Shown here: one piece after another, positions 4,752-54,099 of the stretch
Numbering within the stretch: the first letter of the stretch is position 1
How the letters are laid out: every line of letters begins with the position of its first letter
Assembly (NCBI GenBank): GCA_031370645.1
Contig: JANMQV010000171.1
Span: 23,810 to 87,809, forward strand
Origin: Candidatus Eiseniibacteriota bacterium
GTDB lineage: Bacteria > Eisenbacteria > RBG-16-71-46 > SZUA-252
Direction: 5' to 3'
DNA: 64,000 nt
Made by a program: the position numbers and the translations under genes
Notes under the pieces: model-generated
Told to the model about the DNA's origin: nothing
The model's database searches: none
Seen by the model: only the letters and a program-made list of their open reading frames with translations

Positions 4752-4893
4752 GACCCTGCTCCCAGCCGGCGTTTGTGGTGTTCAACCAGAGGGTGGCCGC
4801 CGGCGTGTGGCCCCTGGTCGTCCGGATCAGGATGGGTCCCGAGTTCCGGTTACCGAACTCGCCGCACTGGCGTGGCCGGTGACCAGGTACCTA

Positions 4894-4909
4894 ATCAAAC
4901 GTCGTGCCT
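4894..4909 (-). promoter_or_regulatory. Candidate sigma54 promoter for the 4134..4751 lipoprotein
   Basis: Minus strand reads AGGCACGACGTTTGAT (GG-N10-GA, a -12 variant). Confidence 0.5.
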
Positions 4910-4915
4910 AATTGT

Positions 4916-4940
4916 TAAGTTGTTATTTTACAATAGTTTA
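4916..4940. promoter_or_regulatory. AT-rich imperfect palindrome, IHF-like site
   Basis: TAAGTTGTT-N7-AATAGTTTA resembles YAA-N4-TTGATW on both strands and lies about -33 to -57 from the predicted sigma54 start. Confidence 0.4.
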
Positions 4941-4972
4941 AATACTTTGTGTCGCTGGTAAGCTGGAGTTTT

Positions 4973-4990
4973 CGTGTCACTCTTGACACG
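4973..4990. promoter_or_regulatory. Perfect palindrome, candidate upstream activator sequence
   Basis: CGTGTCA-CTCT-TGACACG, with an extra half-site TTGACACG at 5065-5072. Confidence 0.5.
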
Positions 4991-5018
4991 CATGGACTGG
5001 AGGAGCAGGCTAGGCATC

Positions 5019-5996
5019 ATGTTGAACCGGATGATTCACAACGGTTTCCGGTGGTGTGGTGCTTTTGACACGCGGTGTTCCGGTGGGGTCACCTCCCCGC
5101 CCCGCCAGCGTCTCTCTTGCGTTGGGCTCACGGGGCTCTGCCTCCTACTCGCTGGCTGCGCCTCGAGCATCACGTCATCACAGGCACCCCGGGCATCGGC
5201 GCGACCCGGGATCGCGCTGCGGGCTCAGGTCATTTGGCATCGACTTCAATTTGTGTACGTCGCCCTCGAGGAGTGGAGCGAGGCCGCCCCCGGCGACACG
5301 CTCCGATTTGAGTCGGGTAACAACGAGATCGCGGTGGCCGAAATCGTGCAGCTCACCGATGGGCAAGTGGCGGTCGCACGCTTCGTCTCAGGGACGCTCT
5401 CGCGAGAACGAAGACTGGAGCGGCTCCGTGTCACGCTTCTGAGGCGAGCCCTTCCCGTTCCATCGGCACTTCGCGTCGGCGTTCCGTCGAGCCGGCGCGT
5501 CATTCTGAATTACGGCTGCGGACCATGGACACTGCGCCCTCCCTTGGGCCTGGCCTATCGGATCGAATCGACCGGCCGTCTGAGGTATCGAATGACACGG
5601 GACTTGTCTCGCGATAGCACGACGTCGCTCCCCATGCCCGGCTCTTGGGCGGCCCGCGCGACCTCGTGGCCGGATACGATTGTCGTCAACGCATTCGAGG
5701 ATGCGGCCGAGCAGGAGATCGCCCTCGAACGAGGTGATCTCGATGTCGCGCTCTTCGCGCCCGGCGAACTCTCGACTCGAATGCTGAAGGCCCCGCGCTG
5801 GCAGGACCGGCTCCTGGCCGATGGCGGCGCGCTCGCGGAATCTGCCGCCGATTCGAGCATGGCGATGGGGATGGCGATCCGCGGGGTTCCCTTTGTGGTG
5901 CTGACACCGCCCGAACTCGTGCCCTATATCCGCACCCTTCGGCCGGAGAATTTCCTTCGCATGCTCGACTGCGGAGTGCGAAGGCGTGGAGAGTGA
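5019..5996 (+). CDS. Hypothetical lipoprotein, partly resembling a family-5 solute-binding protein; possible sensor accessory
   Basis: LLLAGC lipobox; ALERGDLDVA segment recalls SBP family 5; stop overlaps the kinase start (GTGA). Start uncertain (5019 or 5031). Confidence 0.6.
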   Translation: MLNRMIHNGFRWCGAFDTRCSGGVTSPPRQRLSCVGLTGLCLLLAGCASSITSSQAPRASARPGIALRAQVIWHRLQFVYVALEEWSEAAPGDTLRFESGNNEIAVAEIVQLTDGQVAVARFVSGTLSRERRLERLRVTLLRRALPVPSALRVGVPSSRRVILNYGCGPWTLRPPLGLAYRIESTGRLRYRMTRDLSRDSTTSLPMPGSWAARATSWPDTIVVNAFEDAAEQEIALERGDLDVALFAPGELSTRMLKAPRWQDRLLADGGALAESAADSSMAMGMAIRGVPFVVLTPPELVPYIRTLRPENFLRMLDCGVRRRGE

Positions 5997-7612
5997 ACTC
6001 CCTCCGCGCGCGGCTCATCGTCGCGTTCTCGGTCGTCGCGCTCGTGCCGCTCGCCATCGCGACGTTTCTCCTCGGCGGGCGCATCGAGACGATGGTGCGC
6101 GACCAGGCACGCGAGCGACTGAGCGTCACGCTCGGCACGCTTCAGCGGCAGATGGCGGCCGAGGAACAACGCCTTTCCGAGCGACTCGCGATTCTCGGGA
6201 GAGACGCGCAACTGAAGCGGCTCTACCTTCTCCGCCCCGGCAGCGATCGCGAACTAACGGAATACGTCGGCGAGCGGAAACTTCTCCTCGAACTCGACTA
6301 CCTCTATGTCTCCGATGCTGGCGGCACGGCCGTTTCGGGTGAGCAACCGACGGCCGGGCTCGCGTCGGGGGCCGAGGCCGCGATCCTCTATCAGGGAGAG
6401 AGAGTCGGCGCGGTTCACGGCGGAACCCTTTTCAATCAGGCCGCGCTGGAGCGCATGGGCGCGAACGCCGGAGTCGAATTGCTCCTTCGTGACGCCACGG
6501 GGGCCGTGATCGCGAACACGCTCGGGCCGCGGCTCGAACCGCGCCGGACGGACGTGGGACCGAACGCGCGTCTCGTGGTCGGCGGCCGATCGTTCTGGAC
6601 CCGCCAGGTCGCGCTCGAATTCGGCGTCCAGGGCTCCGCGACGCTCACGGGGCTCGTCTCCACCCAGCCGGCCGATCGGGCGATCGCGGCGCTCCGTACG
6701 GCCACGCTGGTCCTCGCGGCGATCTGCGTCGCCATCGCGATCCTGCTCGGGCTTTTCTGGTCCTCGCAGGTCTCGAGGCCGGTCGAGCAGCTCGCGGCGT
6801 TCGCCGGGCGGGTGGCGGAGGGTTCGTGGGATGAACCGCTCCACCTTCGGAGTGTCCGCGAATTGGAAACGCTCGTGGAGGCGCTCGACCGGATGCGCCG
6901 CGACCTCGGGACCTATCGCGAGAAGTTGGTCGTGAGCGAGCGGCACGCGGCGTGGAGCGAGATGGCGAGAAGCGTCGCGCACGAGGTGAAGAATCCGCTC
7001 ACCCCGATCGCGATCGCCATCGCGGATCTCAAGCGAAGCTACGAGCAGAAGCGCCCCGACTTCCCCACCATCCTCGACGAGGCGGCCCGCACCATCGCCG
7101 ACGAGGTGGAGACCTTGAAGCGTCTCCTCCAGGAGTTCTCCGAGTTCGCCCGCTTCCCGGCACCCCAACTCTCGCCGTGCGCACTCGGAGAAATCCTCTC
7201 CGATCTCCGAGCGCTCTATGCCCGCGAGGTGGAGGAGGGCCGGCTCCGCTTCCAAATCGCCGCGGAGCCGCTCGATGTGTCGGCCGACCGTGGCCAATTG
7301 CGACAGGCGCTCCTCAATTTGATCCTGAACGCCCGCGACGCCGCGGGAGCGACCGGGACCGTCACGGTTTCCGCATCGCGCACCGAGCGCGACGCGCTTC
7401 TCACGGTGCGAGACACCGGTCCGGACCTTTCCCTGGAAGAACGGAAGCGCCTCTTCACCCCTGGGTTCACGACGAAAGTGGCCGGGAGCGGCATCGGGCT
7501 GACGATCGTCGAGCGAATCGTCAGCGAACATGGCGGTTCGATCGCGGTCGAGTCGTCCCCCGGCGCGGGGACCTCGTTCCACGTGCGCCTCCCGCTCTTG
7601 AGAGGGATCTGA
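5993..7612 (+). CDS. Sensor histidine kinase, NtrY-like (2 TM, HAMP, HisKA, HATPase)
   Basis: H-box VAHEVKNPLTPI, N-box NLILNARDA, FTTK, GSGIGL. Confidence 0.93.
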   Translation: MNSLRARLIVAFSVVALVPLAIATFLLGGRIETMVRDQARERLSVTLGTLQRQMAAEEQRLSERLAILGRDAQLKRLYLLRPGSDRELTEYVGERKLLLELDYLYVSDAGGTAVSGEQPTAGLASGAEAAILYQGERVGAVHGGTLFNQAALERMGANAGVELLLRDATGAVIANTLGPRLEPRRTDVGPNARLVVGGRSFWTRQVALEFGVQGSATLTGLVSTQPADRAIAALRTATLVLAAICVAIAILLGLFWSSQVSRPVEQLAAFAGRVAEGSWDEPLHLRSVRELETLVEALDRMRRDLGTYREKLVVSERHAAWSEMARSVAHEVKNPLTPIAIAIADLKRSYEQKRPDFPTILDEAARTIADEVETLKRLLQEFSEFARFPAPQLSPCALGEILSDLRALYAREVEEGRLRFQIAAEPLDVSADRGQLRQALLNLILNARDAAGATGTVTVSASRTERDALLTVRDTGPDLSLEERKRLFTPGFTTKVAGSGIGLTIVERIVSEHGGSIAVESSPGAGTSFHVRLPLLRGI

Positions 7613-38602: not shown

Positions 38603-39190
38603 TCACGACTTGCCGGGGAGGATCGTCTCGAGTTTGGCGGTGAGTTCTTTCGCGAGCGGTTCGGTCTTCGACCCGAAACGGGCCACGACATGCCCGTCGG
38701 GCGCGACAAGGAATTTGTTGAAGTTCCACGAGATGTCGCCCTTGAACCCCGAATCGCGTGTGAGGAAACCGTAGAGGGGGTGGATTCCCTTCCCTTTCAC
38801 GCTGATCTTGGAGAAGAGCGGAAACGTCGTCTTGTACTTCGTGCTGCAGAATGTCTTGATCTCCGCGTCGCTCCCCGGTTCCTGCCCCATGAAGTTGTTC
38901 GCCGGAAACCCCAGCACCACGAATCCGCGGTCGCGATACTTCTCGTAGAGCGACTCGAGCCCCTCGTATTGGGGCGTGAATCCGCACTTCGAGGCGGTGT
39001 TCACGATCAAGAGCGCCTTCCCTTTGTAGGCGGAGAGCGATTGCTCGACACCGTCGATCGTCACGGCCTTGAAGTCGTGAACCGTGCGGCCCTCGGGCGT
39101 TGGGGCCCCGTGTGGAGCGGCGTCGGCGGAGACTACCATCCCGAGCGAGGCGGCTGCGGCGGTCAAGAGCGAGAGGCGAAGGAAGTTCAT
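38603..39190 (-). CDS. Glutathione peroxidase family (Cys-type) with signal peptide
   Basis: NTASKCGFTPQY, GFPANNF..QEPG, FC, WNFNKFLV. Confidence 0.93.
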   Translation of the reverse strand: MNFLRLSLLTAAAASLGMVVSADAAPHGAPTPEGRTVHDFKAVTIDGVEQSLSAYKGKALLIVNTASKCGFTPQYEGLESLYEKYRDRGFVVLGFPANNFMGQEPGSDAEIKTFCSTKYKTTFPLFSKISVKGKGIHPLYGFLTRDSGFKGDISWNFNKFLVAPDGHVVARFGSKTEPLAKELTAKLETILPGKS

Positions 39191-39286
39191 GAAGGTCTCC
39201 CGGAGTTTGGATCGGTGCGATGAAGGCTGATCACCTTTGGATGGCGTCTGATCCCGGGCGATTCGCCTCATCGGAAGAAATCGCCG

Positions 39287-40498
39287 CTACCGCGTGGCGC
39301 CCGCCCGGACGACTTCTCCAAGCGCCGTGACGGCGGCGCGGAGCTGCTCGTCGCGGAGATAGGGTGCCGGGCCGAGGCGGAGAATCTCGCCCCGGTGGTC
39401 CGTGAGGACGCCCCGGTCGCGTAGCGCCGCGCCGATGGCGCCGGCGCTCGGCGCACGAAGCGCGAGAAATCCGCCGAGATCCGTCACCGGGGTCGCGCGA
39501 TCTCGTGTAATGGCGGCGGGATCGAGGTCGAGGGCGTCGAAGGCGCTCGCCACGAGCCCCACCTGGTGCTGGCTGATGTCCCGAAGTCGCTCCGCCGTGA
39601 GACCCTCCTCCTCGAAGAATCGAAAGACACGCGCCGCCCGGTAGTGGCTCGTCGGATCGTACGTCGCCCCGGCCCATCGCGCCGGCCCCTCGCCGTACGG
39701 CACTTCTCCGTCCGCGCGTTGCGTCAATCGCGCGAACTCGCTGTACCAGCCGGTGAGAATCGGCCGCAGATCGTCCCGTGCCGGCGGCACACGAAGGAAC
39801 GCGACCCCTTCCCCGAGTTGGCAATACTTGTAGCCTCCACCCACCACGAAAGCGCTTTCGAGTCCGTCCCGCGCCATGTCGGCGGGGACGACATTCAGCT
39901 GGTGGTAGGCATCGACGAGAAGTTCCGCTCCGTGCCGACGACACGCCACCGCCAGCGCGCCGAGATTCGGCACGATGCGCGACGTCGCGAAAAGGACCGA
40001 CGAGACGAGCACCGCGGCGGTCCGCCCGTCGACCGCGGCCGCCAAGCGCTCCGTCAGCGTCGCGACGGGTGTCGCCGCGACTCGCACGACTTCGAGGCGT
40101 CCCTCCTCGGAGAGCCGGTCGAGGTGCCGGCGGATCGTGTGAAACTCTTCGTCGGTCGTGACGAGCCGCGGACGGCGGTCGAGCGGGAGCGCCGATAGGA
40201 ACCGCGTCACCAGCTCGTGCGTGTTCTGGCCCAGCGCAATCTCGCCCGCCGGCGCGTGAAGAAGACGCGCGTAGCCGCGGCGAACGTCGTCCGCCTTCTC
40301 CATCGCCCGACCCCACTTCTCGTCGGCCAACTCGGCCGCGTCGTTCCAGGCGTCGGTCTGCCCTTCGAACCCGCAATCGGGCCACGCCTGGTGCGAGTGC
40401 CCTGTCAGGAGGATGCGATCGGCGACCCGAAAGCGCGAATAGTGGAGCGCGAGCGGATTCGTCGAAGCGGCGAGGTCGGCGACTTGGAGCGGCGCCAT
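39287..40498 (-). CDS. kynU: Kynureninase (PLP, class V fold)
   Basis: DAYHQ, GGGYKY (PLP Lys), LRPILTGWY, LRLGPAPY; TGATG overlap with kynA. Confidence 0.82.
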   Translation of the reverse strand: MAPLQVADLAASTNPLALHYSRFRVADRILLTGHSHQAWPDCGFEGQTDAWNDAAELADEKWGRAMEKADDVRRGYARLLHAPAGEIALGQNTHELVTRFLSALPLDRRPRLVTTDEEFHTIRRHLDRLSEEGRLEVVRVAATPVATLTERLAAAVDGRTAAVLVSSVLFATSRIVPNLGALAVACRRHGAELLVDAYHQLNVVPADMARDGLESAFVVGGGYKYCQLGEGVAFLRVPPARDDLRPILTGWYSEFARLTQRADGEVPYGEGPARWAGATYDPTSHYRAARVFRFFEEEGLTAERLRDISQHQVGLVASAFDALDLDPAAITRDRATPVTDLGGFLALRAPSAGAIGAALRDRGVLTDHRGEILRLGPAPYLRDEQLRAAVTALGEVVRAGATR

Positions 40499-41280
40499 CA
40501 GAGTTCCGTGCGAATGGCCCAGAGATCGGGGAATAGCGAGTGATTGAGCGTCGTCATGAGGTACGCGGCGCCGTCCGATCCGCCCGTTCCCTTCTTCGTG
40601 CCGATCGTCCGTTGCACCATCTTCACGTGGCGATAGCGCCATTCTTGAAGACCTTCGTCGAGATCGACCATCCGCTCGCAGAGGACGCTCGTCATCGGGT
40701 CGGTGCGGTAGATCTTGATGAGAACCGGGTGGAGTGCCGGAACCGATTCAATCGGACGGGTCACGTCCCGCGAGAGCGCCTCGGCCGGGACCGCATGGCC
40801 GTGGCTCACGAGGAGGCGAAGGAACGAATCCCAGAGCGTCGGCTCCGCCATTCGACGCTCCAGGCGGGCGCGGTGCTCGCTTCCGGCCGGATAGCGGTCG
40901 AGCGCGGCGGGACGCTTCATGCCGAGAACGAATTCCAACTCCCGGAATTGAAACGATTGGAAGCCGCTTCCCGACTCCAGGCGCTCGCGGAACGAGAGGA
41001 ACTCGAGCGGCGTCATGGTCTCGAGGATGTCGATCTGCGCCACGGCGACTTTGAGGATCGTGAGGATCCGCTTCATCGTGTGGAGCGCGCGCGGAATATC
41101 TCCCTCCACCAGCAGCCGCTTCAGAAAATCGATCTCGTGGAGGAACTGCTTGAACCAGAGTTCGTAGACCTGGTGGATAACGATGAAGAGCGTCTCGTCA
41201 TGCTCCGGTCCGTCGGAGACCGGCTGCTGCAGCGACAGGAGCTCGTCGATCTTGAGATAGCTGGAATACGTCAGCGCCAT
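40498..41280 (-). CDS. kynA: Tryptophan 2,3-dioxygenase
   Basis: YSSYL, HDETLFIVIHQVYELWFK, SGFQSFQFR, WRYRH, GTGGS. Confidence 0.96.
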   Translation of the reverse strand: MALTYSSYLKIDELLSLQQPVSDGPEHDETLFIVIHQVYELWFKQFLHEIDFLKRLLVEGDIPRALHTMKRILTILKVAVAQIDILETMTPLEFLSFRERLESGSGFQSFQFRELEFVLGMKRPAALDRYPAGSEHRARLERRMAEPTLWDSFLRLLVSHGHAVPAEALSRDVTRPIESVPALHPVLIKIYRTDPMTSVLCERMVDLDEGLQEWRYRHVKMVQRTIGTKKGTGGSDGAAYLMTTLNHSLFPDLWAIRTEL

Positions 41281-41290
41281 CGTGGGCTCC

Positions 41291-43588
41291 TCACGTGAAC
41301 CGCGGTTTGTAGTTATTGAGCAACGAGTACGGATCGGGCCACGGCAGGCGATGCCCGAGTTCGTACGCGGCATGCCGGGTCCAATAGGGATCCCAGAGAT
41401 GCGCGCGCGCCAGGAGGCAGAGGTCGGCCCTCCCCGCCGCCAAGATCGTGTTCACGTCGGCGTAGGACGAAATGGCGCCGACCGCCATCGTGGCAATGCC
41501 GACTTCGTGGCGAATTCGGTCGGCGAACGGCGTCTGGAAGAGCCGGCCGTACTGCGGGCGCTGATCCGCGACCGTCTGCCCCGCCGAGACGTCCACCACA
41601 TCACAATCGTGCGCTTTCAGCAGCCGAGCGACCTCCACCGCGTCCTCCGGCTGATTCCCCGCGGGGTGCCAATCGACGGCCGAGATGCGGACCGACATCG
41701 GCCGCTCCGCCGGCCAGATGGCCCGCACGGCGTCGAAGACCTCGAGCGGAAATCGCATGCGTTGTTCGAGCGAACCGCCGTATTCGTCGGTCCGCAGGTT
41801 GGTGAGCGGTGAAATGAAGCTTGCGAGCAAGTAGCCGTGCGCCATGTGGAGTTCGAGGAGATCGAATCCCGCCTCGATCGCGTACCGGGCGGCGAGCACG
41901 AATTGCTCCTTCACGCGATTCATGTCGGCGCGCGTCATCTCCTGAGGCACTTGGCTGTGCGGATAGAACGGCAGCGGCGACGGCGCCATGATCAGCCACG
42001 CTCCGGCGACGAGCGGCGCGCCGTCCCCTCGCCACGGAACCTCCGTGGCCGCCTTCCTGCCGGCATGCCCGAGCTGCATGGCGATCTTGGCGCGGGACTC
42101 GCCGTGAACGAAGTTAACGATCCGCTTCCACGCGGCGGCGTGTGCCGGCGTATGGAGGCAGGTGCAACCGGGCGAGATGCGCGCTTCGGGGCTCACATCG
42201 GTCATCTCGGCGAAGACGAGCCCGGCACCGCCCAGTGCGCGCGAGCCGAGGTGGACCAGGTGCCAATCGTTCGGCATCCCGTCCTCCGCGGAGTACTGGC
42301 ACATCGGGGAGACGACGACGCGGTTCTCGAGGCGGAGATCGCGAAGACGAAACGGCGTGAAGAGGGGTGGTGGAGCGGCAGCCGTAGGCGACGGAGCGGG
42401 CGCTTCGGCCAACGGCGCCGACCTCACAGGCTCGGGCGCGCCTCCCGACTGCCGGGCGGCCTTCGCCGCGTACCAGGCATCCACCCGCGCGACCAGGATC
42501 GGATCGCGCAACTTCAGATTCTCGTGCGTCACGCGAAGGCTGCGCGTCAGGAGCGTGAAGGCGAATTCCAGCGGCTCCACGTCCATGTAACGTTCCGTCT
42601 CCTCGAACCACTCGAGGCTCGCCTGTGCCGCTCGCTGAAGACTCTCGACACCGGGGCGGCGGGCCGCCTCGTATGCCGCGAGCGCGTCGGGGATGGAAGC
42701 GTGGTCGCGAAGCGACTGGGCCAGGGCGATCGAGTCTTCCATGGCGAGTTTCGTCCCGGATCCGACGGAGAAATGAGCGGTGTGCGCGGCGTCTCCGACC
42801 AGCACCAGGTTTCCATGGGACCAACGCTCGTTTCGGATCGTGGGAAAACTCCGCCAGATCGACCGATTCGAGAGAAGTGGAACCCCCGCCAATTCCTCGG
42901 CGAAGAGCTGCTGGCAGAACTCGATCGAGTCCTTCTCGTTCGCCGATGCCAGTCCGGCCGCCCGCCAGGTCTCTTCGCGCGCCTCCACGATGAACGTCGA
43001 CATCCCCGGTTCGTACTGGTAGGCGTGGACGCGCCAGAGTCCATGGGAGTCGGACTTGAAGTAGAAGGTGAAAGCCGGAAAGGGCTTCGTCGTGCCGAGC
43101 CAGACAAACCTGTTCGGCCGAATGTCGATGAAGGGTCGAAAGTGCTTCTCGTAGCGCTCACGGATCGGCGAGTTCACGCCATCCGCGGCAAGGATGATGT
43201 CGGCGTCCTTCAGCGTCTCCGGGTCGGAGATTTCGCGGTTGAAGCAGAGCTGAACACCCACTTCGCGGCAGCGATCGGCGAGGATGGCCAGGAGCGTCTT
43301 CCGCGAGAGTCCGGAGAATCCGTGCCCCGTCGAGGTGATCGTTTCGCCCCGGTAATGGATCTCGATGTCGTCCCAACGATGGCAGCGCGCCGCCATGGCG
43401 GCGATCACTTCGGGATCGGCATGCTCCAGCGCTGCTTCGGTCGCGTCGGAGAAGACGACGCCGAATCCGAACGTGTCGTGGAGATGGTTCCGCTCATAGA
43501 CGGTCACCTCGTGACGGGGATCTTGCTTTTTTAGGAGGAGCGCAAAGAAGAGCCCGGCCGGCCCCCCGCCGATCGAGACGGCCTTCAC
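41291..43588 (-). CDS. abmA: 2-aminobenzoyl-CoA monooxygenase/reductase (salicylyl-CoA 5-hydroxylase family)
   Basis: [33 protein letters not shown], plus OYE domain SPMCQY, HAGRK, HMAHGYL. Confidence 0.93.
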
Positions 43589-44763
43589 GAAGCCGCGTCC
43601 TCGCTCAAGAGCGCGCCCGCGATGACGAGATGCTGGATCTCGGTCGTTCCTTCGTAGATTCGAAGCGCGCGGACGGAACGGTAGAGCCGATCGACTGGGT
43701 GAGACGCCAGGACTCCCGTGCCGCCCAGAATCTGAACGGCGTCGTCCACGATTCGCTGCGCCGCCTCGGTCGCGTACGATTTCGCCATGGCCGCTTCGAG
43801 GGTCACGCGTTCGGCTCCCTGATCGGCGGCCCACGCCGCGCGGTAGACGAGGAGTCTTGCCGCCGTCAGCTCGGTCGCCATGCGCGCCAGTTTCTCCTGC
43901 ACCAGTTGGAACTCGGCGAGCGGCTTTCCGAACTGTCGCCGCTCCTTCGCGTGAAGGATCGCCTCTTCCAGCGCGCGCGCTGCCATCCCGCAGGCCGCGG
44001 CACCAACGGTGGCGCGGAGGCGGTCGAGCGTCTTCAACCCGAGTCCGAAGCCGCGTCCTTCCTCTCCGAGGCGATTCGCCGCCGGAACGCGGCAGTCGTC
44101 GAACGCGATCTCGCCGAGAGGGTGCGGCGAGGAGAGGACCTGCGCCTTCACGAACCGAAGCCCCGGCGTGCCGGCGGGAACGACGAGGCAGGAGATTCCC
44201 TTCCCTTTGGCGGCGGTATCGGTGGAGGCGAAGACGGTGTAGAAGTCGGCGATGCCGGCGTTCGAGATGAAGGTCTTCCCACCGCTCAGCACGTACGCAT
44301 CGCCGTCGCGGCGCGCGGTCGTCGCGATCGCGGCCACGTCGGATCCGGCGCCCGGCTCCGTCATCGCGAAGGCGGCCATCGCGCGGCCCGCGAGCGCGGG
44401 CTCGGCGAATTCAGCCTTGAGTCGCGCGTCGCCCGCCAGAAGAATCGGAAGCGTTCCGAGTCCTTGAAGCGCGAAGACCGCGTCGGCCAGCGGCGACGAC
44501 GCGCCCAGCGATTCACGAGCCAGACAGCAGCCCCGCCAGTCTTGCCGGCGGATCGCCTCGAACCATCCCGCCTCCCCCAGCCGCCCGAGGATCGCCCGGG
44601 CGTCGCCACGCGCCGCCTCGTCGTTCGCGGGTTCCGCCCGAGTCGCGAGATTCGACGACGCGAACGCGCCGAAGGTTCCCGCGAGCGCCAGGTGCTGGAG
44701 TTCCAGGAACGCGCGGATCGGCCGAACGTCCGGGGTCGGGGACGTGCCCTTGAATCCGCTCAT
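43585..44763 (-). CDS. Acyl-CoA dehydrogenase (AbmD-like)
   Basis: [31 protein letters not shown]. Confidence 0.93.
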
Positions 44764-45563
44764 CCGGTGAACCTCGCGTCCCGCTTGTCGCGGAAGGCCT
44801 CGTAGGCTTCGCGGAAGTTCGGATGCAGCATCAACTCCGCCTGCGCGTCCGCTTCGTAGCGGAGCGCTTGGTCGAGCGTCATCGTGAATTCCAGATCGAG
44901 CGCCGCCTTCGTCACCGCGAGCGCCGAGGCGGGCCCGCGCGCGAGACGCGCGGCGAGCGCGGTCGCCTCGGCGAGGAGTTGCTCGCCCGGCACGACGCGC
45001 TGATAGAGCCCGATCTCCAGCGCGCGCTTCGCGTCGATGAAATCGCCGGTCATCAAGAGTTCCGTCGCCCGCCCGAGCCCCACGATACGCGGCAGGAGCC
45101 ACGACGCGCCCATGTCGGCGCCCGAGAGCCCGACCCGCACGAAGAGGTAGGCGATCTTCGCCGTCTCCGACGCGATCCGAAGATCGCAGGCGGTGGCGAT
45201 CACCGCGCCGGCGCCGGCGACGGTGCCGTTCAACGCGGCGATGACCGGCCGGCGACAGCGGCGGATGTTGGCGATCACGTCGCACGTCATGCGGGTGAAT
45301 TCTCGAAGCCCCTCGGCGTCGCGGGCGAAGAGCGCGCCGATGATGTCCTCCACGTCGCCGCCGGAGCAAAACCCCTTCCCCGAGCCGGTCAGGACCACGG
45401 CGCGCACGCCCGGCGCCGTATCGAGTTCGCGGAACGTGTCGCGGAGTTCGCCATAGACCTCGAACGTGAGGGCGTTCAGGCGATCGGGCCGGTTGAGCGT
45501 GATCGTGGCGACGCCGGTCGCCAGGTCGTGCGCATAGAGGAATGACTTCGGACGGATCGCCAT
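44760..45563 (-). CDS. Enoyl-CoA hydratase family (AbmC-like)
   Basis: LNRPDRLNAL, FCSGGDV, AGAG, GLSGADMG. Confidence 0.93.
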   Translation of the reverse strand: MAIRPKSFLYAHDLATGVATITLNRPDRLNALTFEVYGELRDTFRELDTAPGVRAVVLTGSGKGFCSGGDVEDIIGALFARDAEGLREFTRMTCDVIANIRRCRRPVIAALNGTVAGAGAVIATACDLRIASETAKIAYLFVRVGLSGADMGASWLLPRIVGLGRATELLMTGDFIDAKRALEIGLYQRVVPGEQLLAEATALAARLARGPASALAVTKAALDLEFTMTLDQALRYEADAQAELMLHPNFREAYEAFRDKRDARFTG

Positions 45564-45974
45564 CTAACGAGTTCCCCCGATGACCGCCGTCGCTTCCATC
45601 TCGACCACGGCCCCCCGGTCGACGAGCCCCTTCACTTCCAGGAGCGCCACGGCCGGGAAATGTTTCCCCATCCGCTCGCGCCAGATGGCGCCGATCGCTT
45701 TCCGGCTCTCACGGTAGGCGGCGAGATCGACGACATAGATCGTGAGTCTCGCCAGGTCGGCGGGACTGCCCCCCGCGGCCGCGACAATGGCAAGGACGCG
45801 GTCGAGCGCGCGCGCGAACTGTCCGGTGAAATCGGGAGGCGTTCCCGGCGCGTCTTCCTCCCAACCAGCTTGCCCGGCGATGAAGAGGACGCGCCCGTCG
45901 CCTGGCGCGAGGAGCCCGTTGTTCCAGCCGTTCGGCACGCCGAGGGCCGGCGGATTGACGATGTCGAAGTTCAT
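45564..45974 (-). CDS. RidA/YjgF family protein (AbmF-like)
   Basis: LFIAGQ, HFPA, VEMEATA. Confidence 0.88.
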   Translation of the reverse strand: MNFDIVNPPALGVPNGWNNGLLAPGDGRVLFIAGQAGWEEDAPGTPPDFTGQFARALDRVLAIVAAAGGSPADLARLTIYVVDLAAYRESRKAIGAIWRERMGKHFPAVALLEVKGLVDRGAVVEMEATAVIGGTR

Positions 45975-46756
45975 CGCGTCGTGGATCCTCCATCGAGAAC
46001 GATCGTTCGGCCCGTCGTGCCGGCCGCCTCGTCGAGGCAGAGACGGCGCACCTCGGCGGCAATTTCCTCCGGCGTCACGAGCCGCGCCTGCCCGCTCGTG
46101 GCGAGCATGGCCGCTACGGCTCCGGCGGCGTCAAGGCCGGTGTGCTTCGAAACGTCTTGCACGGTCCGTTCGGTGAGGGGGGTGTCGGCGTATCCAGGAC
46201 AGACGGCATTCACCGTCACGCCCCGATCCGCCAGTTCCATCGCGATCGAACGGGTGAAACCGATCACGGCATGCTTGGCGGCCGAGTAGTGGGCGATGTA
46301 TCTCCCACCCTCGAGCCCGGCGGTGGAGGCGATATTCACGATCCGCCCGCGCCCGCGCGCCACCATCTCCGGCACGAACTCGCGCGTGCAGAGAAAGGTA
46401 CCCGTGGCGTTCACGGCGAGCATGCGATTCCACTCGGCGAGCGACATCTTCGAGAGCGGCGCGGAGGCCGCGTCGCCGGCGTTGTTGATCAAGATCTCCA
46501 CCCCGCCCAGATGGCGGCGCGCCTCTTCGCCCAGCCGGCGCACGCTCGCTTCGTCGGTGACGTCGCCGACAACCGACCAAGCGCGCGCGTCAAACGCGCG
46601 GAGCGATACCGCCACCGCCTCGATTTCCTCAGCACTACGGGCGGAGACGACGATGGAAGCACCGGCCTCGGCGAGCGCTCGGGCGATGGCGGCGCCGATG
46701 CCGCGGCCTCCCCCCGTCACGACCGCGCCGCGTCCCGCGAGAGGTGTCGACTTCAC
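45971..46756 (-). CDS. SDR oxidoreductase (AbmB-like)
   Basis: TGGGRGIG, NNAG, YSAAK, NAVCPG. Confidence 0.92.
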   Translation of the reverse strand: MKSTPLAGRGAVVTGGGRGIGAAIARALAEAGASIVVSARSAEEIEAVAVSLRAFDARAWSVVGDVTDEASVRRLGEEARRHLGGVEILINNAGDAASAPLSKMSLAEWNRMLAVNATGTFLCTREFVPEMVARGRGRIVNIASTAGLEGGRYIAHYSAAKHAVIGFTRSIAMELADRGVTVNAVCPGYADTPLTERTVQDVSKHTGLDAAGAVAAMLATSGQARLVTPEEIAAEVRRLCLDEAAGTTGRTIVLDGGSTTR

Positions 46757-47520
46757 GCGCGCTCCGATCCGGCGAGCGCTTCCGCGACCGCCTCGGCGAG
46801 AATGTCGCCGAGCGTCGCGATCGTCGCGGCTCCCTCGGCGGCCGTCGCGTCGGCGGGCCAACCGAAGTAGGCGCGCGGGCCGCCCGCCTCTTCAAAGGTC
46901 CTCATCCCGCCGCGGATCGCGGTCGAGAGCGATGCGGGGTTCGGCTCGAGCGCGCGCCGGATCTCCTCGCGAACCAGATCGGGACGCGCGGCCATCACCA
47001 TGGAACCCTCGTAACGTCCGGCATGACAGGCGCCGGTCTGAAACTCTTCGCTGAGGCGGCTTGCCCACGACTTTCGCGTGAGATCGGGGGCGACGAGCGG
47101 CACGTATTCCGCCTCCATCGCCGCCGTCTGAGCGGCTGCGATGGAGCCGAGATGCGCGGGGTCGAGGTGTGCGTTCGCGATCGCGAGCACCGCGGCACCG
47201 CGCGTGGTGAGGGCGCGCGCGAGATCGAGCAGCATGGCCGTGACGGTCCCGGGCGAGATCGAGAGCGTCCCCGGAAATCCTTCCGCGAAAGGCGCGGCGG
47301 TATAGGAGAGCGAAGGCAAGAGAAGCGCCGTGAGCCCGCGTGCCGCGAGGCGATCGGCCCCCGCGCGTGCCATCGCCTCGGCGATGATCACGTCGGTGGC
47401 GAGAGGAAGATGAGGGCCGTGCGCTTCGATCGCGCCGACGGGGAGGATGGCGACGCAGCGCGCGAGGTCGAGGCCCTTGGCCTCTTCCCACGTCATCGTC
47501 CCCCACTCCCACAGCGGCAT
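46753..47520 (-). CDS. Creatininase-family amidohydrolase
   Basis: MTWEE, LPVGAIEAHGPHLPLATD, FPGTLSI, NAH, HAGRYE. Confidence 0.9.
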   Translation of the reverse strand: MPLWEWGTMTWEEAKGLDLARCVAILPVGAIEAHGPHLPLATDVIIAEAMARAGADRLAARGLTALLLPSLSYTAAPFAEGFPGTLSISPGTVTAMLLDLARALTTRGAAVLAIANAHLDPAHLGSIAAAQTAAMEAEYVPLVAPDLTRKSWASRLSEEFQTGACHAGRYEGSMVMAARPDLVREEIRRALEPNPASLSTAIRGGMRTFEEAGGPRAYFGWPADATAAEGAATIATLGDILAEAVAEALAGSERA

Positions 47521-47620: not shown

Positions 47621-49141
47621 ATGACCATCGAGCCGCCGGAACGCCGGAACATCGCCGACCTTTTCCTCGACGCCCGCCTCCGGGAAGGGCGCGGGGATCG
47701 CCCCGCCATCCTCACCGACTCCCGCGCCTGGACCTACGCCGAGATTCACGAACTCGCGAACCGCTACGGGCACCTTCTCGAGGGTTTCGGCGCCGGCCCC
47801 GACGACCGCATCGTCATTGCCCTTCCCGACGGCCCGGACTACGTCGCCGCCCTCTTCGGAACGCTCAAGATCGGCGCGATCGTCGTGATGGTGAATCCGG
47901 GGCTTCCCGCGTCCGATCTCGCGATTCTGCTCGACTACACGCGCGCGCGCTTCGTCGTCACCGACGCGACCGCCGCCGCGGCCTTCCGGGAGGCGACGCG
48001 CAGTTCCCGCGCGATCCGGGGCTTGATCGAGGTCGGCACGGCCGACTTCACGCGGCGGCTCGGGGAGGCCCCCCCCCTGCTCGAGACGTTCCCGTCGCAC
48101 CCCGACGATCCAGCGATCTGGCTCTTCTCGGGCGGGACGACCGGGCGCCCCAAGGCGGTCATCCAATCGCATCGATCCTTCGCCTTCACGACCGAGCGAT
48201 ACGGACTCGGAGTCCTCGGCTACACGGAGCGCGAGATCACGATCTCGGTCCCGAAGCTCTATTTCGGATACGCCACCGGCTCGAATCTCTTCTTCACCTT
48301 CGCCGCCGGCGGTACCTCGGTCCTCTTCCCCGAGGCGGTCACCGCGGAAATCCTCTTCGAGAAGGTTCGCCGTCACCGCGCAACCGTCTTGGTAAACGTT
48401 CCCACGATGATCCAGAAACTCGTGTCGCACGAGCGGGCGTCGTCCGGCGATTTCGCCTCGCTCCGCCTCGCGACCTCCGCCGGCGAGGCGCTCCCGGTGG
48501 AGCTCTACGAGCGTTGGAAGGCGACGTTCGGCGCCGAGCTACTGGACGGCCTTGGGACGGCCGAGATGTGGCACATCTTCATCTCGAATCGCCCGGGTCT
48601 CGTGAAGCCGGGCACGCTCGGGACGGTCGTTCCCGGCTTTGAGATCAAGGCGTGCGACGAGGAGGAGCGCGAGTTACCGGCCGGCGAAACGGGGTGGCTC
48701 TGGGTGCGAGGTGGCGCGCGAGCGATCGCTTACTGGCAGCATCAGGAGAAGACCGAACAGGCATTCCGCGGCGAGTGGTACGTCTCGGGCGATCTCGTGG
48801 CGATCGACGCGGAGGGATTCGTCACCTACCACGGGCGGGGCGACGAACTGTTGAAGGTGGGTGGAAAGTGGCTCGCGCCGCAGGAGGTGGAGGGGTGCCT
48901 GCTCCTGCATCCGGCGGTCGCGGAGGCCGCCGTCGTCGGCGTGGCCGACGCGAACGGGCTCGTGAAGCCGGTGGCCCCCGTGGTGGCGCGCGAGCGAAGC
49001 GCCACGCTCGCCGAGGAATTGAAGACGTTCGTCCGCGAGCGGCTCGCGCCCTACAAGCATCCGAGGGAAATTTTCTTCGTCGATTCGCTCCCCCGCACCC
49101 ACCTGGGAAAAGTGGATCGCGGGAAACTGCGCCGCTCCTAG
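47621..49141 (+). CDS. Benzoate/2-aminobenzoate-CoA ligase family
   Basis: FSGGTTGRPK, PKLYFGY, SAGEALP, DGLGTAE, SGD, GR.D..LK, PRTHLGK. Confidence 0.9.
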   Translation: MTIEPPERRNIADLFLDARLREGRGDRPAILTDSRAWTYAEIHELANRYGHLLEGFGAGPDDRIVIALPDGPDYVAALFGTLKIGAIVVMVNPGLPASDLAILLDYTRARFVVTDATAAAAFREATRSSRAIRGLIEVGTADFTRRLGEAPPLLETFPSHPDDPAIWLFSGGTTGRPKAVIQSHRSFAFTTERYGLGVLGYTEREITISVPKLYFGYATGSNLFFTFAAGGTSVLFPEAVTAEILFEKVRRHRATVLVNVPTMIQKLVSHERASSGDFASLRLATSAGEALPVELYERWKATFGAELLDGLGTAEMWHIFISNRPGLVKPGTLGTVVPGFEIKACDEEERELPAGETGWLWVRGGARAIAYWQHQEKTEQAFRGEWYVSGDLVAIDAEGFVTYHGRGDELLKVGGKWLAPQEVEGCLLLHPAVAEAAVVGVADANGLVKPVAPVVARERSATLAEELKTFVRERLAPYKHPREIFFVDSLPRTHLGKVDRGKLRRS

Positions 49142-49207: not shown

Positions 49208-49876
49208 CTAGTAGAGTCCGGGAGCGAGGCGCGGGGTGCGCTTCATGTACTCGCGATAGTCCTCGCCGAATTCCTGCGACATGAACGCCTCTTCCACGTC
49301 CATCCGGCGCTTGAACATCCAGAAGACGACCGGCATCAGCAGAAGCGCGATCGAACTGCGGAAGATGCCCGCGAAGCCGAGATCCATGAGCAGAATTCCG
49401 ACGTACGAGGGATGGCGGACGAAACCATAGAGCCCGCTCGTCTCGAGCGCGTGCCCTTCCTGGCGCGCCACGACGGAGGCGAATCGCTTCCCGAGGATCA
49501 TCATCGGCCAGATGCGGAGCGCGGCCCCGCACGCGAGAAAGACGAGCCCGACCCAGCGGAGGTAGTCGCCGCCGTAGAGCACCCAGATTCCGCGCGCGTC
49601 CATGTAGGGCATCACCCACGCGGTGAAGAGCGAGTGGAACATGAGGAGCGGAAAGAACGGCTTCCAGTCCGCCTGGTGCTTCTCACCGCGGCTTCGCCCC
49701 GAGGTGGAGAAGGTCATCACGGGGAGCATGAGGAAGTGGATGACCACCACGCCCACGCGCACCGGGTGGGCGAAGAATCCGGCCCAGCTCCCCCACGCCA
49801 TCACCATGAGGAGGAGGAAGAGAACGACGTTCATCGGAATGCCGATCAGTTGCTTCATGGAAATGGAGTTCGACAT
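49208..49876 (-). CDS. Isoprenylcysteine carboxyl methyltransferase (ICMT/STE14) family membrane protein
   Basis: H.L.TSGLYGFVRHPSY.G, EE..M...FGEDY..Y...TPR. Confidence 0.88.
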   Translation of the reverse strand: MSNSISMKQLIGIPMNVVLFLLLMVMAWGSWAGFFAHPVRVGVVVIHFLMLPVMTFSTSGRSRGEKHQADWKPFFPLLMFHSLFTAWVMPYMDARGIWVLYGGDYLRWVGLVFLACGAALRIWPMMILGKRFASVVARQEGHALETSGLYGFVRHPSYVGILLMDLGFAGIFRSSIALLLMPVVFWMFKRRMDVEEAFMSQEFGEDYREYMKRTPRLAPGLY

Positions 49877-50099
49877 GCTCCCCCCCTGATTCATGGCTTC
49901 GATTCCACGACCTATCCAGGGAATATCGGCAGAGGATTCGGGATCGGGAGGGGGAAGAGGAAGAATCACGTCGCTTATAAATTAATGCGGCACAGCATGA
50001 TATCGATATTGCTTCATCAATCGAAAGACCCGCGTGCGCGGGGCGTCGAGCCTGTTTCCCCGGTTTTATTGACCCCCAGCTTCGTCGTAGACTCCCCGC

Positions 50100-50613: not shown

Positions 50614-51456
50614 CTACTCCGCGGGAAGTTCCCGCGCCGCTTCCGGCGTTCCCACCGCCGGCCAGATCCCCGCCGATGCCGGATAGTTCGATCCCATTCC
50701 CGGCGCGTCCTCCGGTGGTCGGCGATAGATGACCCCAAGCGCGAATCGCTCCTGGCGAACGATTTCCATGGCGCGCGAGAGGTCCGTGGGTTCGTATTCC
50801 GGCGGAAGGATGTCGCAGCGCTGATAAATCGTTTCCCCATACGTCGGGCCTTGATACGTCACGCAGCCGGCAAGCACGTGGAGGAACGAGAAGCCGCGAT
50901 AGGCGATCGCGGCGCGGAACATCTCGCGAAGGTGCGGCAGATTTCCCGCGTGCGTTCGCGCGACGAAGCCGCAGCCGCTGCTCAGGACCAGGAGCACCGG
51001 ATTGAGCGGACGCTCCTCGACGCCGGCCAGTCCCCGATCCCGCTTGAACTCCTCGGTGGAGGTGGGCGACGCCTGTCCCTTGGTGAGTCCGTAGATCCCA
51101 TTGTCGAGAACGGCGTAGGTGAGGTCGACGTTTCGCCGCACGGCGTGGGGGATGTGACCGAGCCCGATCGAGAAGCCGTCCCCGTCCCCGCCCACGACGA
51201 CGGTCGTGATGTCGGGGCGCGCGAATTTGAGACCGCTCGCGATCGGGAGCGCGCGGCCGTGGACCGAATTGAACGCGTAGGAGCGCGTGTAGCCGGGGAG
51301 CCGGCTCGAGCAGCCGATTCCCGAGATGATCGCCAGTCGCTCCGGCGCGATGTCGAGATCGGCGAGCGCCGTCGTGAGCCCCTTCAGGACTCCGAAGTCG
51401 CCGCAGCCGTTGCACCACACCGGCTCGAGCGCGGAACGATAATCTTTCGCCTTCAT
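50614..51456 (-). CDS. korB: 2-oxoacid (2-oxoglutarate-type):ferredoxin oxidoreductase beta subunit
   Basis: WCNGCG, SGIGCS, HGRA, GDGD...DNGIYGLTKGQ. Confidence 0.92.
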   Translation of the reverse strand: MKAKDYRSALEPVWCNGCGDFGVLKGLTTALADLDIAPERLAIISGIGCSSRLPGYTRSYAFNSVHGRALPIASGLKFARPDITTVVVGGDGDGFSIGLGHIPHAVRRNVDLTYAVLDNGIYGLTKGQASPTSTEEFKRDRGLAGVEERPLNPVLLVLSSGCGFVARTHAGNLPHLREMFRAAIAYRGFSFLHVLAGCVTYQGPTYGETIYQRCDILPPEYEPTDLSRAMEIVRQERFALGVIYRRPPEDAPGMGSNYPASAGIWPAVGTPEAARELPAE

Positions 51457-53225
51457 GCGGTCGCCTCCGTGAGATAGCGGTCGAGTTCGGCCGCGGTCAT
51501 CGGCGTCCCTCCGCTCCGCGTGATTCGCTTCGCCTCGCGGAGGTCGGTGAGACTCGAAAGGTAGCGGTGGAATTGCCCCTGATAGTTCATCTCGACGATG
51601 GCCAGCGACTGAAGGCCGCGGCGCCACGATTCGAAGCCCTCGAGCGGGAAGGGATGGATGATCTCGGGGAGGAACACGCGATAGTCCGGATGCGCCGCGA
51701 CCCACTCGCGAAGGAGTCCGTACTCGCTCCCCCACGATACGATGCCGCGCGGCGCTTCCTCCGCGCCGAGCGTCCGATACCAGTCGCGCGTGTCGCGCGC
51801 GATCGCCGTCAGTTTTCGGAACCGCTTCTCGTTCATGCGGTGATGCATGGTCGTGTCGGCGGTTGGATTTCCCTCCGCGGTATGCTCGATGCCGGCCGCG
51901 AGGTACGTGCCGCCCACGTCGCCCGGCACGCGGAAGGCGTTCACGCCCTCCTCGGAGCCGAGGTCGAACCGGGCGGGGCCGTTCGCTTCCGTCCATCGCT
52001 CCCGCACGGGAGCCGCCCGCCGCGTCGTCTCCGCGTCGCGGATCTGGCGGCGTTGCGCGATGTAGGCGTCGGAGAGGACGAGGACGGGAAGTTGATAGCG
52101 CTCGGCAAGGAGCATGGCGCGGTACATCACGTCGCGCCCGTGAACGACGTCGAAGACGCCGAGGACCGCGCGGGGGAAATCGCCATGTCCCCCGTAGATC
52201 GCATGGAAGAGGTCCGACTGTTCGGTGCGCGACGGCATGCCGGTCGCCGGGCCGGCCCGCTGGCAGTCGACGATGACGGCCGGAAGCTCCGCCATGCTGG
52301 AGAGCCCAATCATCTCCGTCATGAGCGAGAGCCCCGGCCCGCTCGTCGCCGTCATCGACGGCACGCCGCCGAACGAAGCGCCGAGCACCATCCCCATGGC
52401 GGCGATCTCATCTTCCGCCTGCACGACGCGCCCCCCGGCCGCGGGTAACTCCTCGATGAGCGTCTCCATGACCTCCGACGAAGGGGTGATGGGATAGCCC
52501 GCGAAGAATTTAAGTCCCGCGGCGATGGCGCCGCGCGCGATCGCCTCATTCCCCGATTCGGCGAAGAGGCCGTGCCCCTTCCCTTCCGGCGCCCGTCGCT
52601 CGGGAGGATTGGGGGCGGTCAAACCGGTCGCGAGCGCTTCCAGGTTTGCTTGAAGCCGGTCGCGGCGATGGCCGAAGCGGCGCCGAAGCGCGTCTTCCGC
52701 CAGCGTCTGCGGCCAGCCGAGCACGCGGCAGAGGAGCCCCAGGCCGAGCATGTTCTTCGGCGGCCCCTCCACCTCGAGCCCCTCCTCGAATCGCGCGAAC
52801 GGGAAGCGGTAGGGAGCCTCCTCGGTGTGCCCAAGCCACTCGGGCGGGTCGCCCGCCTCTTCCCGATCGATCACGACGACGCTCCCCGAATGGAGCCGGA
52901 GCGCGCCTTGGAATCGATTCAGGTCGCGGAGGCGGAGGCAAAGGAGAACGTCTACCTGGTCCCCTTCATAGAGCACTTCGCGCTCCGAGATCCGCACGAT
53001 CGCGGCCGACTCTCCCCCGCGGATCTGGGGGCCGTACGACTGGACCATGATCCCGTAGAGCCCCTGGCGCGCGGCCATTCCGAGTACCAGGTCGCCGAGG
53101 AGCGCCACGCCGTCGCCGCCGCTTCCGACGAGTGCGAGAACGAGAGATCGCGGCGAAGCGAGCCTCGGAACGGACGGGATGAGAGAGGCGCTTCGAGGAA
53201 CGGGCGCGGACGCCGACGGTTTCAT
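51453..53225 (-). CDS. korA: 2-oxoacid:ferredoxin oxidoreductase alpha subunit (gamma-alpha fusion)
   Basis: GSGGDG, QIRGGES, GYPITPSS, EDEIAA, TSGPG, QRAGPATG.P. Confidence 0.92.
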   Translation of the reverse strand: MKPSASAPVPRSASLIPSVPRLASPRSLVLALVGSGGDGVALLGDLVLGMAARQGLYGIMVQSYGPQIRGGESAAIVRISEREVLYEGDQVDVLLCLRLRDLNRFQGALRLHSGSVVVIDREEAGDPPEWLGHTEEAPYRFPFARFEEGLEVEGPPKNMLGLGLLCRVLGWPQTLAEDALRRRFGHRRDRLQANLEALATGLTAPNPPERRAPEGKGHGLFAESGNEAIARGAIAAGLKFFAGYPITPSSEVMETLIEELPAAGGRVVQAEDEIAAMGMVLGASFGGVPSMTATSGPGLSLMTEMIGLSSMAELPAVIVDCQRAGPATGMPSRTEQSDLFHAIYGGHGDFPRAVLGVFDVVHGRDVMYRAMLLAERYQLPVLVLSDAYIAQRRQIRDAETTRRAAPVRERWTEANGPARFDLGSEEGVNAFRVPGDVGGTYLAAGIEHTAEGNPTADTTMHHRMNEKRFRKLTAIARDTRDWYRTLGAEEAPRGIVSWGSEYGLLREWVAAHPDYRVFLPEIIHPFPLEGFESWRRGLQSLAIVEMNYQGQFHRYLSSLTDLREAKRITRSGGTPMTAAELDRYLTEATA

Positions 53226-53229
53226 CGTT

Positions 53230-54099
53230 TCAACCCTCCAGGGACGGTTCGACGGGTTCGGGACGCGGACGCTGGCCGATGCGGTGAAGGATCGTGCTGG
53301 GGCAGATGTCGACGCACACTTCCTCGCACGTCGGCCCGTACGCGAGACAGACGTCGTGATGAATGATAATCGTCCGGCCGTCCCACTCGATGGCCCCGGC
53401 CGGGCACTTGGAGACGCACTTCCGACAGAGCGTGCAGCCGACCATGCAGGTGGAACGCACCACCGCCTGCTTGTCCTTGGCGACACACGAGAGTTCGATC
53501 CGGCGGTTGCGCGGATAGAGTTGGAAGAGCTCCTTCGGGCAGACCGGCACGCAGACGCCGCAACCGGTGCACTTCTCGTAATCCACGGCCGCGATACCGC
53601 CGTCGCTCAGGTAGAGCGCGTCGAACGGGCAGGCGCGAACGCAATCGCCAAGCCCGAGGCAGCCGTTCTTGCACGCCTTCGGCCCACCGAAGACGAGCGA
53701 CGCGGCGGCGCAGGTGTCGAGCCCGACGTAGCGCGCCTCCTCCCGGGCGAAAGCGCTCGTCCCGTGGCAGCGCATGACGACGATCCGGTCGGCGACCGTT
53801 CCCACTTCCTTGCCGGTGAGCCGGGCGACCGCCGCCGCCACGGCGGCGCGACCGGGAATACAGAGATTGGGCGAGACGTCCTGACGCTCCACGACCGCCT
53901 CGGCGTAGGCGAGGCAGCCCGCGAAGCCGCAGGCGCCGCAGTTCGCCGAAGGCAACTTGTCACGCACCTCGTCCACGATCGGGTTGCTCGGAACGTGGAA
54001 GCGCCGCGCCACCATCGCGAGCGACACGCCGAAGACGACTCCGATCGAGGTGAATACCCCGAGTCCGTAGAGCGCGGTCTGGACGGCGGTGGCGTTCAT
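53230..54099 (-). CDS. rnfB: Rnf subunit B (polyferredoxin)
   Basis: N-terminal TM, LPSANCGACGFAGC, several CxxCxxCxxxCP-type motifs. Confidence 0.93.
   Translation of the reverse strand: MNATAVQTALYGLGVFTSIGVVFGVSLAMVARRFHVPSNPIVDEVRDKLPSANCGACGFAGCLAYAEAVVERQDVSPNLCIPGRAAVAAAVARLTGKEVGTVADRIVVMRCHGTSAFAREEARYVGLDTCAAASLVFGGPKACKNGCLGLGDCVRACPFDALYLSDGGIAAVDYEKCTGCGVCVPVCPKELFQLYPRNRRIELSCVAKDKQAVVRSTCMVGCTLCRKCVSKCPAGAIEWDGRTIIIHHDVCLAYGPTCEEVCVDICPSTILHRIGQRPRPEPVEPSLEG

Follow-up and report, generated by a model that had tools for sequence, protein, structure and literature searches.

A creatininase-family hydrolase as a candidate aryl-formamide deformylase in bacterial tryptophan and 2-aminobenzoyl-CoA gene clusters

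Introduction

KynB, the cyclase-type kynurenine formamidase, is described as a binuclear-metal hydrolase (PMC4243253). In a second protein family, that of creatininase, the homologue BrbF from S. meliloti was assayed as the formamidase of a formylamino-pyrimidine nucleotide (PMC9478397); deformylation of an aromatic amine therefore lies within the proven range of this family. For the degradation of 2-aminobenzoate through CoA esters (the abm route), we follow the outline given in the review PMC4539516. Many bacteria that encode tryptophan 2,3-dioxygenase (TDO) as well as kynureninase lack a recognisable kynurenine formamidase, and this gap concerns several abundant, uncultured soil phyla, namely those that carry orthologues of the gene described below. 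The archaeal formamidase of riboflavin biosynthesis, ArfB, is presumably also a member of the creatininase superfamily, and a match to the Pfam family PF02633 is present in Methanocaldococcus jannaschii.

Here we analyze a locus that contains a creatininase-family gene next to genes for both tryptophan and 2-aminobenzoate degradation. It lies in a stretch of 64,000 nucleotides (the window; contig JANMQV010000171.1, positions 23,810 to 87,809, of GenBank assembly GCA_031370645.1) from a Candidatus Eiseniibacteriota bacterium. A preliminary description of this DNA had proposed that the creatininase-family enzyme fills the N-formylkynurenine step as a third class of formamidase or, alternatively, that it hydrolyses an intermediate of the abm route.

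Results

The creatininase-family gene and its operon

The reading frame at 46753..47520 (minus strand), here called CREA, is a genuine gene; it is the first gene of its operon and encodes a creatininase-family metal hydrolase of 255 residues, a putative aryl-formamide deformylase. The frame starts with an ATG at 47520, preceded at 9 nt by GGGGAG, and ends in a TGA that overlaps, as GTGA, with the GTG start codon of the following gene. The match to PF02633 (Creatininase; E 1.8e-50, 172.1 bits against a cut-off of 31.3) spans model positions 2-238 of 238 and bears out the preliminary description of a creatininase-family gene heading the operon. It is the sole Pfam match, and neither PF04199 (cyclase) nor TIGR03035 (arylformamidase) is matched. 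Scores on more specific NCBIfam models fall under the respective cut-offs: 72.3 bits (cut-off 235) for creatininase proper (TIGR04448), 105.5 bits (cut-off 172) for the mycofactocin peptidase MftE (TIGR03964) and 29.4 bits (cut-off 245) for the 3-dehydro-scyllo-inosose hydrolase IolN (NF041098). No mycofactocin genes were found within the operon with Pfam, and NCBIfam returned no BrbF/ArfB formamidase model for CREA.

The metal motifs of CREA read E32-A-H34-G-P-H37-x5-D43, N116-A-H118 and H166-A-G168 with E171. All of those that had been listed earlier are present, and their residues are invariant in 32/32 aligned orthologues, with the correction that five rather than four residues separate the second His from the Asp; the replacement of the usual NGH region by NAH was also described correctly. 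Residues E32, H34, D43, H118, H166 and E171 align with the metal and catalytic residues of Pseudomonas creatininase (1J2T), which we take to be E34, H36, D45, H120, H178 and E183 in its residue numbering. By this alignment the metal site of CREA appears intact, with the binuclear metal ligands (E, H, D, H, E) and the catalytic His all kept. An AlphaFold (AF2) model built from 32 orthologues has a pLDDT of 94.6, and a Foldseek search with it gave 26 matches at E≤0.001. The 15 of these 26 that were listed are all of the creatininase family (TM 0.68-0.76) and comprise chains named creatininase or putative creatinine amidohydrolase (3A6J, 3LUB, 3NO4), so that CREA is predicted with good support from the model to adopt the creatininase fold. 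Foldseek offered no clue to the substrate and ESM Atlas gave the family name only. CREA is a small protein and is predicted to be soluble.

Divergent from CREA, across a gap of ~100 bp, lies a gene for an aryl-CoA ligase of the benzoate/2-aminobenzoate-CoA ligase family (47621..49141, plus strand; TIGR02262 435 bits, cut-off 375). Its reading frame is open from 47447 and the TIGR02262 match begins at residue 66 of this long frame; the start is probably the ATG at 47621. The genes downstream of CREA all lie on the minus strand. They encode a short-chain dehydrogenase/reductase (SDR; 45971..46756, GTG start; PF00106 E 8.8e-63), a RidA/YjgF-family protein that is a putative enamine/imine deaminase (45564..45974; PF01042 E 1.3e-16), a member of the enoyl-CoA hydratase/crotonase family (ECH; 44760..45563; PF00378 E 1.5e-55, and NF006107 364 bits, over the cut-off), an acyl-CoA dehydrogenase (ACAD; 43585..44766; PF00441 and PF02770) and a two-domain flavoprotein of the 2-aminobenzoyl-CoA monooxygenase/reductase type, AbmA (41291..43600; PF01494 and PF00724). 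AbmA scores 1125 bits (cut-off 1078) on NF006101, the NCBIfam model named 'salicylyl-CoA 5-hydroxylase/oxidoreductase'. The last two genes encode TDO (40498..41283; PF03301 E 1.5e-62, TIGR03036 281 bits) and a divergent kynureninase-like PLP enzyme (39287..40498; PF00266). The preliminary description had counted both TDO and a kynureninase in the operon. The first of these stands as given, whereas the second needs qualification: the protein scores only 29 bits on PF22580 (KYNU_C) and matches no NCBIfam kynureninase model, its best solved relative being the kynureninase 1QZ9 (E 1e-11).

CREA is the sole hydrolase of the operon, in which all the other steps from tryptophan to a ring-reduced CoA ester are present. 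As had been noted before, no cyclase or alpha/beta hydrolase is found by Pfam among the operon genes, and the absence extends to the source genome (95% complete, 247 contigs), which has no match to PF04199, TIGR03035 or PF07859 (Abhydrolase_3). The search for an alpha/beta-hydrolase formamidase covered PF07859 (alpha/beta-hydrolase fold-3) alone, which we take to be the family that holds the eukaryotic-type formamidase.

Conservation and architecture of CREA loci

CREA orthologues are 57-83% identical and very common in soil metagenomes and metagenome-assembled genomes. By their record labels they come from Eisenbacteria, Gemmatimonadota, Dormibacterota, Chloroflexota, Planctomycetota, Acidobacteriota and Myxococcota. 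No orthologue turned up in plasmid or E. coli collections; among plasmids the best match has 32% identity to CREA, and 'creatininase family' genes of rhizobial plasmids reach only 28-30% identity.

We surveyed 160 CREA loci, 80 from genomes and 80 from metagenomes, making each count over the loci with enough flanking sequence. The ligase gene is divergent from and adjoins CREA in 65/68 genome loci and 35/38 metagenome loci (100/106 together). Directly downstream of CREA an SDR gene is found in 67/69 genome loci and 13/42 metagenome loci; a RidA gene takes this position in 28/42 metagenome loci and in none of the 69 genome loci. AbmA lies within the locus in 33/38 genome and 12/12 metagenome cases (45/50 together), and TDO in 31/38 and 6/12 (37/50 together). 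A minimal cluster consists of ligase, CREA, RidA, ECH, AbmA, TDO and the kynureninase gene, CREA having been kept where SDR and ACAD were lost. Eleven loci have the TDO-kynureninase pair upstream or elsewhere, and here too CREA has the ligase on one side and SDR or RidA on the other. TDO was present elsewhere in the genome in all five of these exceptions that were tested, and AbmA exceeded the cut-off in four of five genomes from a partly different set. A planctomycete locus clusters CREA with no more than the ligase and a kynureninase-like gene, and at a single locus, L062, CREA is found by itself, remote from the genes of the pathway. Given the 57-83% identity, the occurrence in at least five phyla and the fixed position as first gene, all seen over 160 loci, CREA is likely to have a core rather than an accessory role.

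Fused forms were also found. CREA is joined to SDR in nine clusters (512-533 aa) and to RidA in two clusters, with the latter fusion also present as a single open reading frame in 3/51 loci; the search yielded no fusion to TDO or kynureninase. We give these proteins little weight because the gene fused to CREA is in every case the one that directly follows it downstream. An extra gene inserted between ACAD and AbmA in some loci (L029) was considered as a formamidase and rejected, as it encodes a second OYE-type flavoprotein.

Distribution of CREA and KynB

No KynB-like gene occurs in any of the 160 CREA loci. For comparisons among whole genomes, PF04199 alone was rejected as a marker of KynB: it matched 28/50 carrier genomes, but all five of the matches that were examined score at most 85 bits on TIGR03035 (cut-off 223). 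At least two matches have a hydrophobic, signal-peptide-like N-terminus, and in one, N and Y replace both His residues of the HxGTHxD motif. By comparison, a genuine KynB of 209 aa, encoded beside a canonical kynureninase in genome G085, scores 214 bits. Because PF04199 by itself is a poor marker, TIGR03035 was used instead.

In a sample of 201 genomes from the window's phylum, with KynB-like genes defined by TIGR03035 at E≤1e-30, 66 carry CREA and all 66 of these have TDO. A KynB-like gene is present in 3/66 carriers versus 8/18 TDO-positive non-carriers. Of the ten TDO-positive genomes with neither CREA nor a KynB match, four are either incomplete or interrupted at the cluster, four come from a single genus (g6) and two are others. 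The Gemmatimonadota sample holds 181 genomes, among them 55 CREA carriers, including one (G382) recognised via tblastn, and 18 AbmA-positive non-carriers. TDO is present in 52/54 of the carriers and also in G382, the two without it being fragmented genomes. KynB-like matches of at least 175 bits occur in 0/55 carriers versus 12/18 AbmA-positive non-carriers, and matches of any strength in 9/55 versus 15/18; the genes of the nine carriers score in the middle range (134-163 bits). KynB adjoins TDO in 16 published Gemmatimonadota non-carriers but in none of the eight TDO-positive genomes among the nine carriers with a KynB-like match. These counts include three unpublished genomes as single members.

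CREA and KynB are thus distributed in a complementary manner in two phyla, and the check for anti-correlation with kynB that the preliminary description had called for came out in its favour. We attach no probability to the counts, since related genomes are not independent; moreover, the two cluster types form separate lineages, so that descent confounds the complementarity. Four genomes that at first appeared to have AbmA without CREA were set aside: three because of contig ends or low completeness, and G382 because CREA is present at 54% identity. The search for another enzyme also included five Gemmatimonadota loci with a stand-alone TDO; no conserved hydrolase adjoins it, and therefore no alternative formamidase was found by that route.

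The AbmA of non-carriers belongs to a second type, which scores 1190-1350 bits on NF006101 versus 1047-1175 bits in carriers, and it is encoded in a sister type of abm cluster. In genome G377 the gene order is AbmA-SDR-ECH-ACAD-ligase-RidA, beyond which KynB and TDO lie on the other strand and point towards the cluster; CREA is absent. Genome G085 likewise has a CREA-free abm cluster, with TDO and the canonical KynB-KynU pair elsewhere in the genome, and the megaplasmid of Ralstonia solanacearum carries the same cluster type without CREA, TDO or kynureninase. What sets the two cluster types apart, compared gene by gene, is KynB on one side and CREA with the divergent kynureninase on the other; the divergent kynureninase, sought at ≥55% identity, was absent from 10/10 KynB-positive non-carriers tested. 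The existence of CREA-free abm clusters indicates that the lower abm route can run without CREA.

The partners that CREA follows most closely are those of the lower module. AbmA accompanies CREA in 63/66 carriers of the window's phylum and 52/55 carriers in Gemmatimonadota, and CREA is found in none of the 14 genomes of the former that have TDO but not AbmA. Conversely, seven genomes encode TDO and kynureninase as a pair of this type (59-71% identity) and have no match for CREA, AbmA or KynB; four of them belong to genus g6, one of these being 99% complete. The pair can therefore exist without CREA, and where it stands alone it either functions without a dedicated formamidase or relies on an unrecognised one.

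Discussion

CREA is the best candidate for the formyl-removal step that lacks a known enzyme in these bacteria. Specifically, we propose, with a probability of roughly one half, that it is an aryl-formamide deformylase that acts on N-formylkynurenine or perhaps on N-formylanthranilate; both the activity and its substrate we infer from the genomic evidence. CREA would work as a binuclear-metal hydrolase, splitting off as formate the N-formyl group that TDO leaves behind, and would stand in for the cyclase-type KynB. The complete route would lead from tryptophan to N-formylkynurenine, then, with deformylation on the way, to anthranilate and anthraniloyl-CoA, and on through ring reduction and steps resembling beta-oxidation. 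The strongest argument for such a non-orthologous replacement is the sister cluster, in which KynB is found.

The preliminary description had named N-formylkynurenine as the substrate. The complementarity with KynB and the sister cluster speak for this proposal, but CREA tracks the ligase and AbmA rather than TDO and kynureninase, and seven genomes have the TDO-kynureninase pair without it. Two orders of reaction can be envisaged. In the classical sequence, CREA would act on N-formylkynurenine itself. In the inverted order, the divergent kynureninase would first cleave N-formylkynurenine to alanine and N-formylanthranilate, and CREA would then deformylate N-formylanthranilate and so feed the CoA ligase. 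The distribution of CREA fits the inverted order better than the classical one. If the inverted order holds, CREA would be required only at the junction of the upper module with the abm route, its place next to the ligase would reflect that it makes the substrate of that enzyme, and TDO-kynureninase pairs would be able to stand alone. The planctomycete cluster, in which only the ligase and a kynureninase-like gene accompany CREA, also supports it. An N-formylanthranilate deformylase or a hydrolase of the abm route thus accounts for the data no less well than a simple N-formylkynurenine formamidase does. Of these three readings the inverted order explains the most, though it relies on a presumed acceptance of the formyl compound by the putative kynureninase. 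The stronger, combined claim, that CREA is a third and unrelated class of aryl-formamidase and that the pathway order is inverted as well, is doubtful.

The close association with the lower module could instead mean that CREA is a hydrolase of the abm route proper, which would act, alongside RidA and the crotonase, on 2-amino-5-oxocyclohex-1-enecarboxyl-CoA or a derivative. Examples would be hydrolysis of a primary amide after opening of the ring at the enamine, or cleavage of a ring C-C bond as by IolN, which by its NCBIfam name is a ring C-C hydrolase within the creatininase family. This explanation would account for the co-occurrence with AbmA, for the immediate neighbours of CREA (the ligase, and SDR or RidA), for the fusions to SDR and RidA and for the retention of CREA in the minimal cluster. 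We nevertheless consider it rather unlikely, though the most serious of the alternatives. The sister abm clusters of Ralstonia, G085 and G377 do without CREA, so that it is dispensable for every step of the route; hydration, deamination and ring opening would, judging from known crotonase and RidA chemistry, already be covered by those two proteins; and most CREA carriers would be left without any formamidase. The fusions, being with the next gene downstream, are weak evidence of a shared step, and the resemblance to IolN amounts to 29 bits on a model with a cut-off of 245.

It is improbable that CREA hydrolyses some other amide or lactam beside the pathway (for example a cyclised or acylated product of kynurenine or anthraniloyl-CoA), or has an unrelated role while the formyl group is lost spontaneously or to an unspecific esterase or amidase: the founding members of the creatininase family do open cyclic amides, seven genomes combine TDO and kynureninase with no recognisable formamidase and CREA is by itself in L062, but its conservation and fixed first-gene position over 160 loci argue for a core role, and we know of no such side product.

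If deformylation by CREA is borne out, a third enzyme class would close the annotation gap in bacteria that have TDO and kynureninase. A new function would be added to the creatininase family, in which 'creatinine amidohydrolase' is a routine misnomer, and the gene set for tryptophan degradation by way of the poorly known 2-aminobenzoyl-CoA route would be complete. In a literature search that left subscription journals mostly outside its scope, the matches listed did not link the creatininase family to the formylkynurenine step, and the terms 'creatininase' and 'kynurenine formamidase' co-occurred, within the same scope, only in a study of mouse kidney.

Among characterised proteins, the creatininase of Pseudomonas putida (1J2T, 3A6J) matches CREA in fold (TM 0.70-0.75, 24-25% identity), and the six metal and catalytic residues are common to both. 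CREA differs from it in having NAH(L/H)DP instead of the NGH motif region, and no creatine genes lie nearby. BrbF of S. meliloti (SMc02977), an enzyme of riboflavin biosynthesis, carries out the chemistry proposed for CREA, on an N-formyl group attached to an aromatic amine. BrbF and ArfB differ from CREA in substrate, pathway and genomic context, and the likeness considered here is one of family and chemistry. The abm clusters of Azoarcus evansii, which serve aerobic 2-aminobenzoate degradation, reportedly share with the CREA operon a ligase, an AbmA-type flavoprotein, beta-oxidation-like genes and a RidA-like gene. The proteobacterial abm cluster of Ralstonia differs from the operon in lacking CREA, TDO and kynureninase.

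The closest functional counterpart would be KynB (cyclase family PF04199, TIGR03035), for which the proposed step is the same, hydrolysis of an N-formyl arylamine after TDO, and which occupies the place of CREA in the sister type of tryptophan/abm cluster. The two proteins are unrelated in family and fold, and they differ in their surroundings: KynB usually adjoins TDO, whereas CREA adjoins the CoA ligase.

Divergent kynureninase of the operon

The kynureninase-like gene of the operon (39287-40498, minus strand) belongs to a divergent clade. Its product scored 29 bits on the KYNU_C model and matched the kynureninase structure 1QZ9 with an E value of 1e-11, and none of the NCBIfam kynureninase models matched it. 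The divergent kynureninase accompanies operon-type tryptophan 2,3-dioxygenase (TDO) in genomes without a gene like that of the cyclase-type formamidase KynB, and at a threshold of at least 55% identity it was absent from all ten of the KynB-positive genomes tested. The substrate preference of the operon enzyme may be shifted.

TDO and kynureninase of the operon type also occur as stand-alone pairs, at 4140-6121 of locus L093 (genome G059), at 7757-9741 of L094 (G202) and in L181, L187 and L189; these pairs occur without the creatininase-family gene (CREA), the flavoprotein gene abmA or kynB. In genus g6, the stand-alone pair has an MFS transporter on one side and an XRE-type regulator on the other.

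Neighboring and related genes

Three minus-strand features flank the operon in the window: an ICMT/PEMT-family membrane methyltransferase assigned by Pfam (49208-49969) and, going by their translations only, a two-subunit 2-oxoacid:ferredoxin oxidoreductase (50614-53486) and a glutathione peroxidase-like gene (38603-39271). No connection of these genes with the operon was seen. The source genome carries a second creatininase-family gene on contig C148 (L195, 1-882, minus strand), which has the usual NGHGGN motif and adjoins acyl-CoA carboxylase genes. One MAG (L042, genome G029) is titled Hyphomicrobiales and is placed taxonomically in the same class as the window genome; either its title or its binning is wrong.

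Variation among abm clusters

In some Gemmatimonadota clusters, an added OYE-type NADH:flavin oxidoreductase (14134-15579 in L029, with similar gaps in L023, L025, L043 and L069) separates the acyl-CoA dehydrogenase from AbmA. A second type of abm cluster was found at 7189-16389 of L191 (G377), in L088 (G085) and on the Ralstonia solanacearum megaplasmid (L086). The Ralstonia cluster includes a MarR regulator and a thioesterase, and its SDR is apparently frameshifted. In all three loci AbmA is the first gene and CREA is missing; in G377, KynB and TDO are attached to the cluster. The ligase of this second type shares only 32-34% identity with that of the window.
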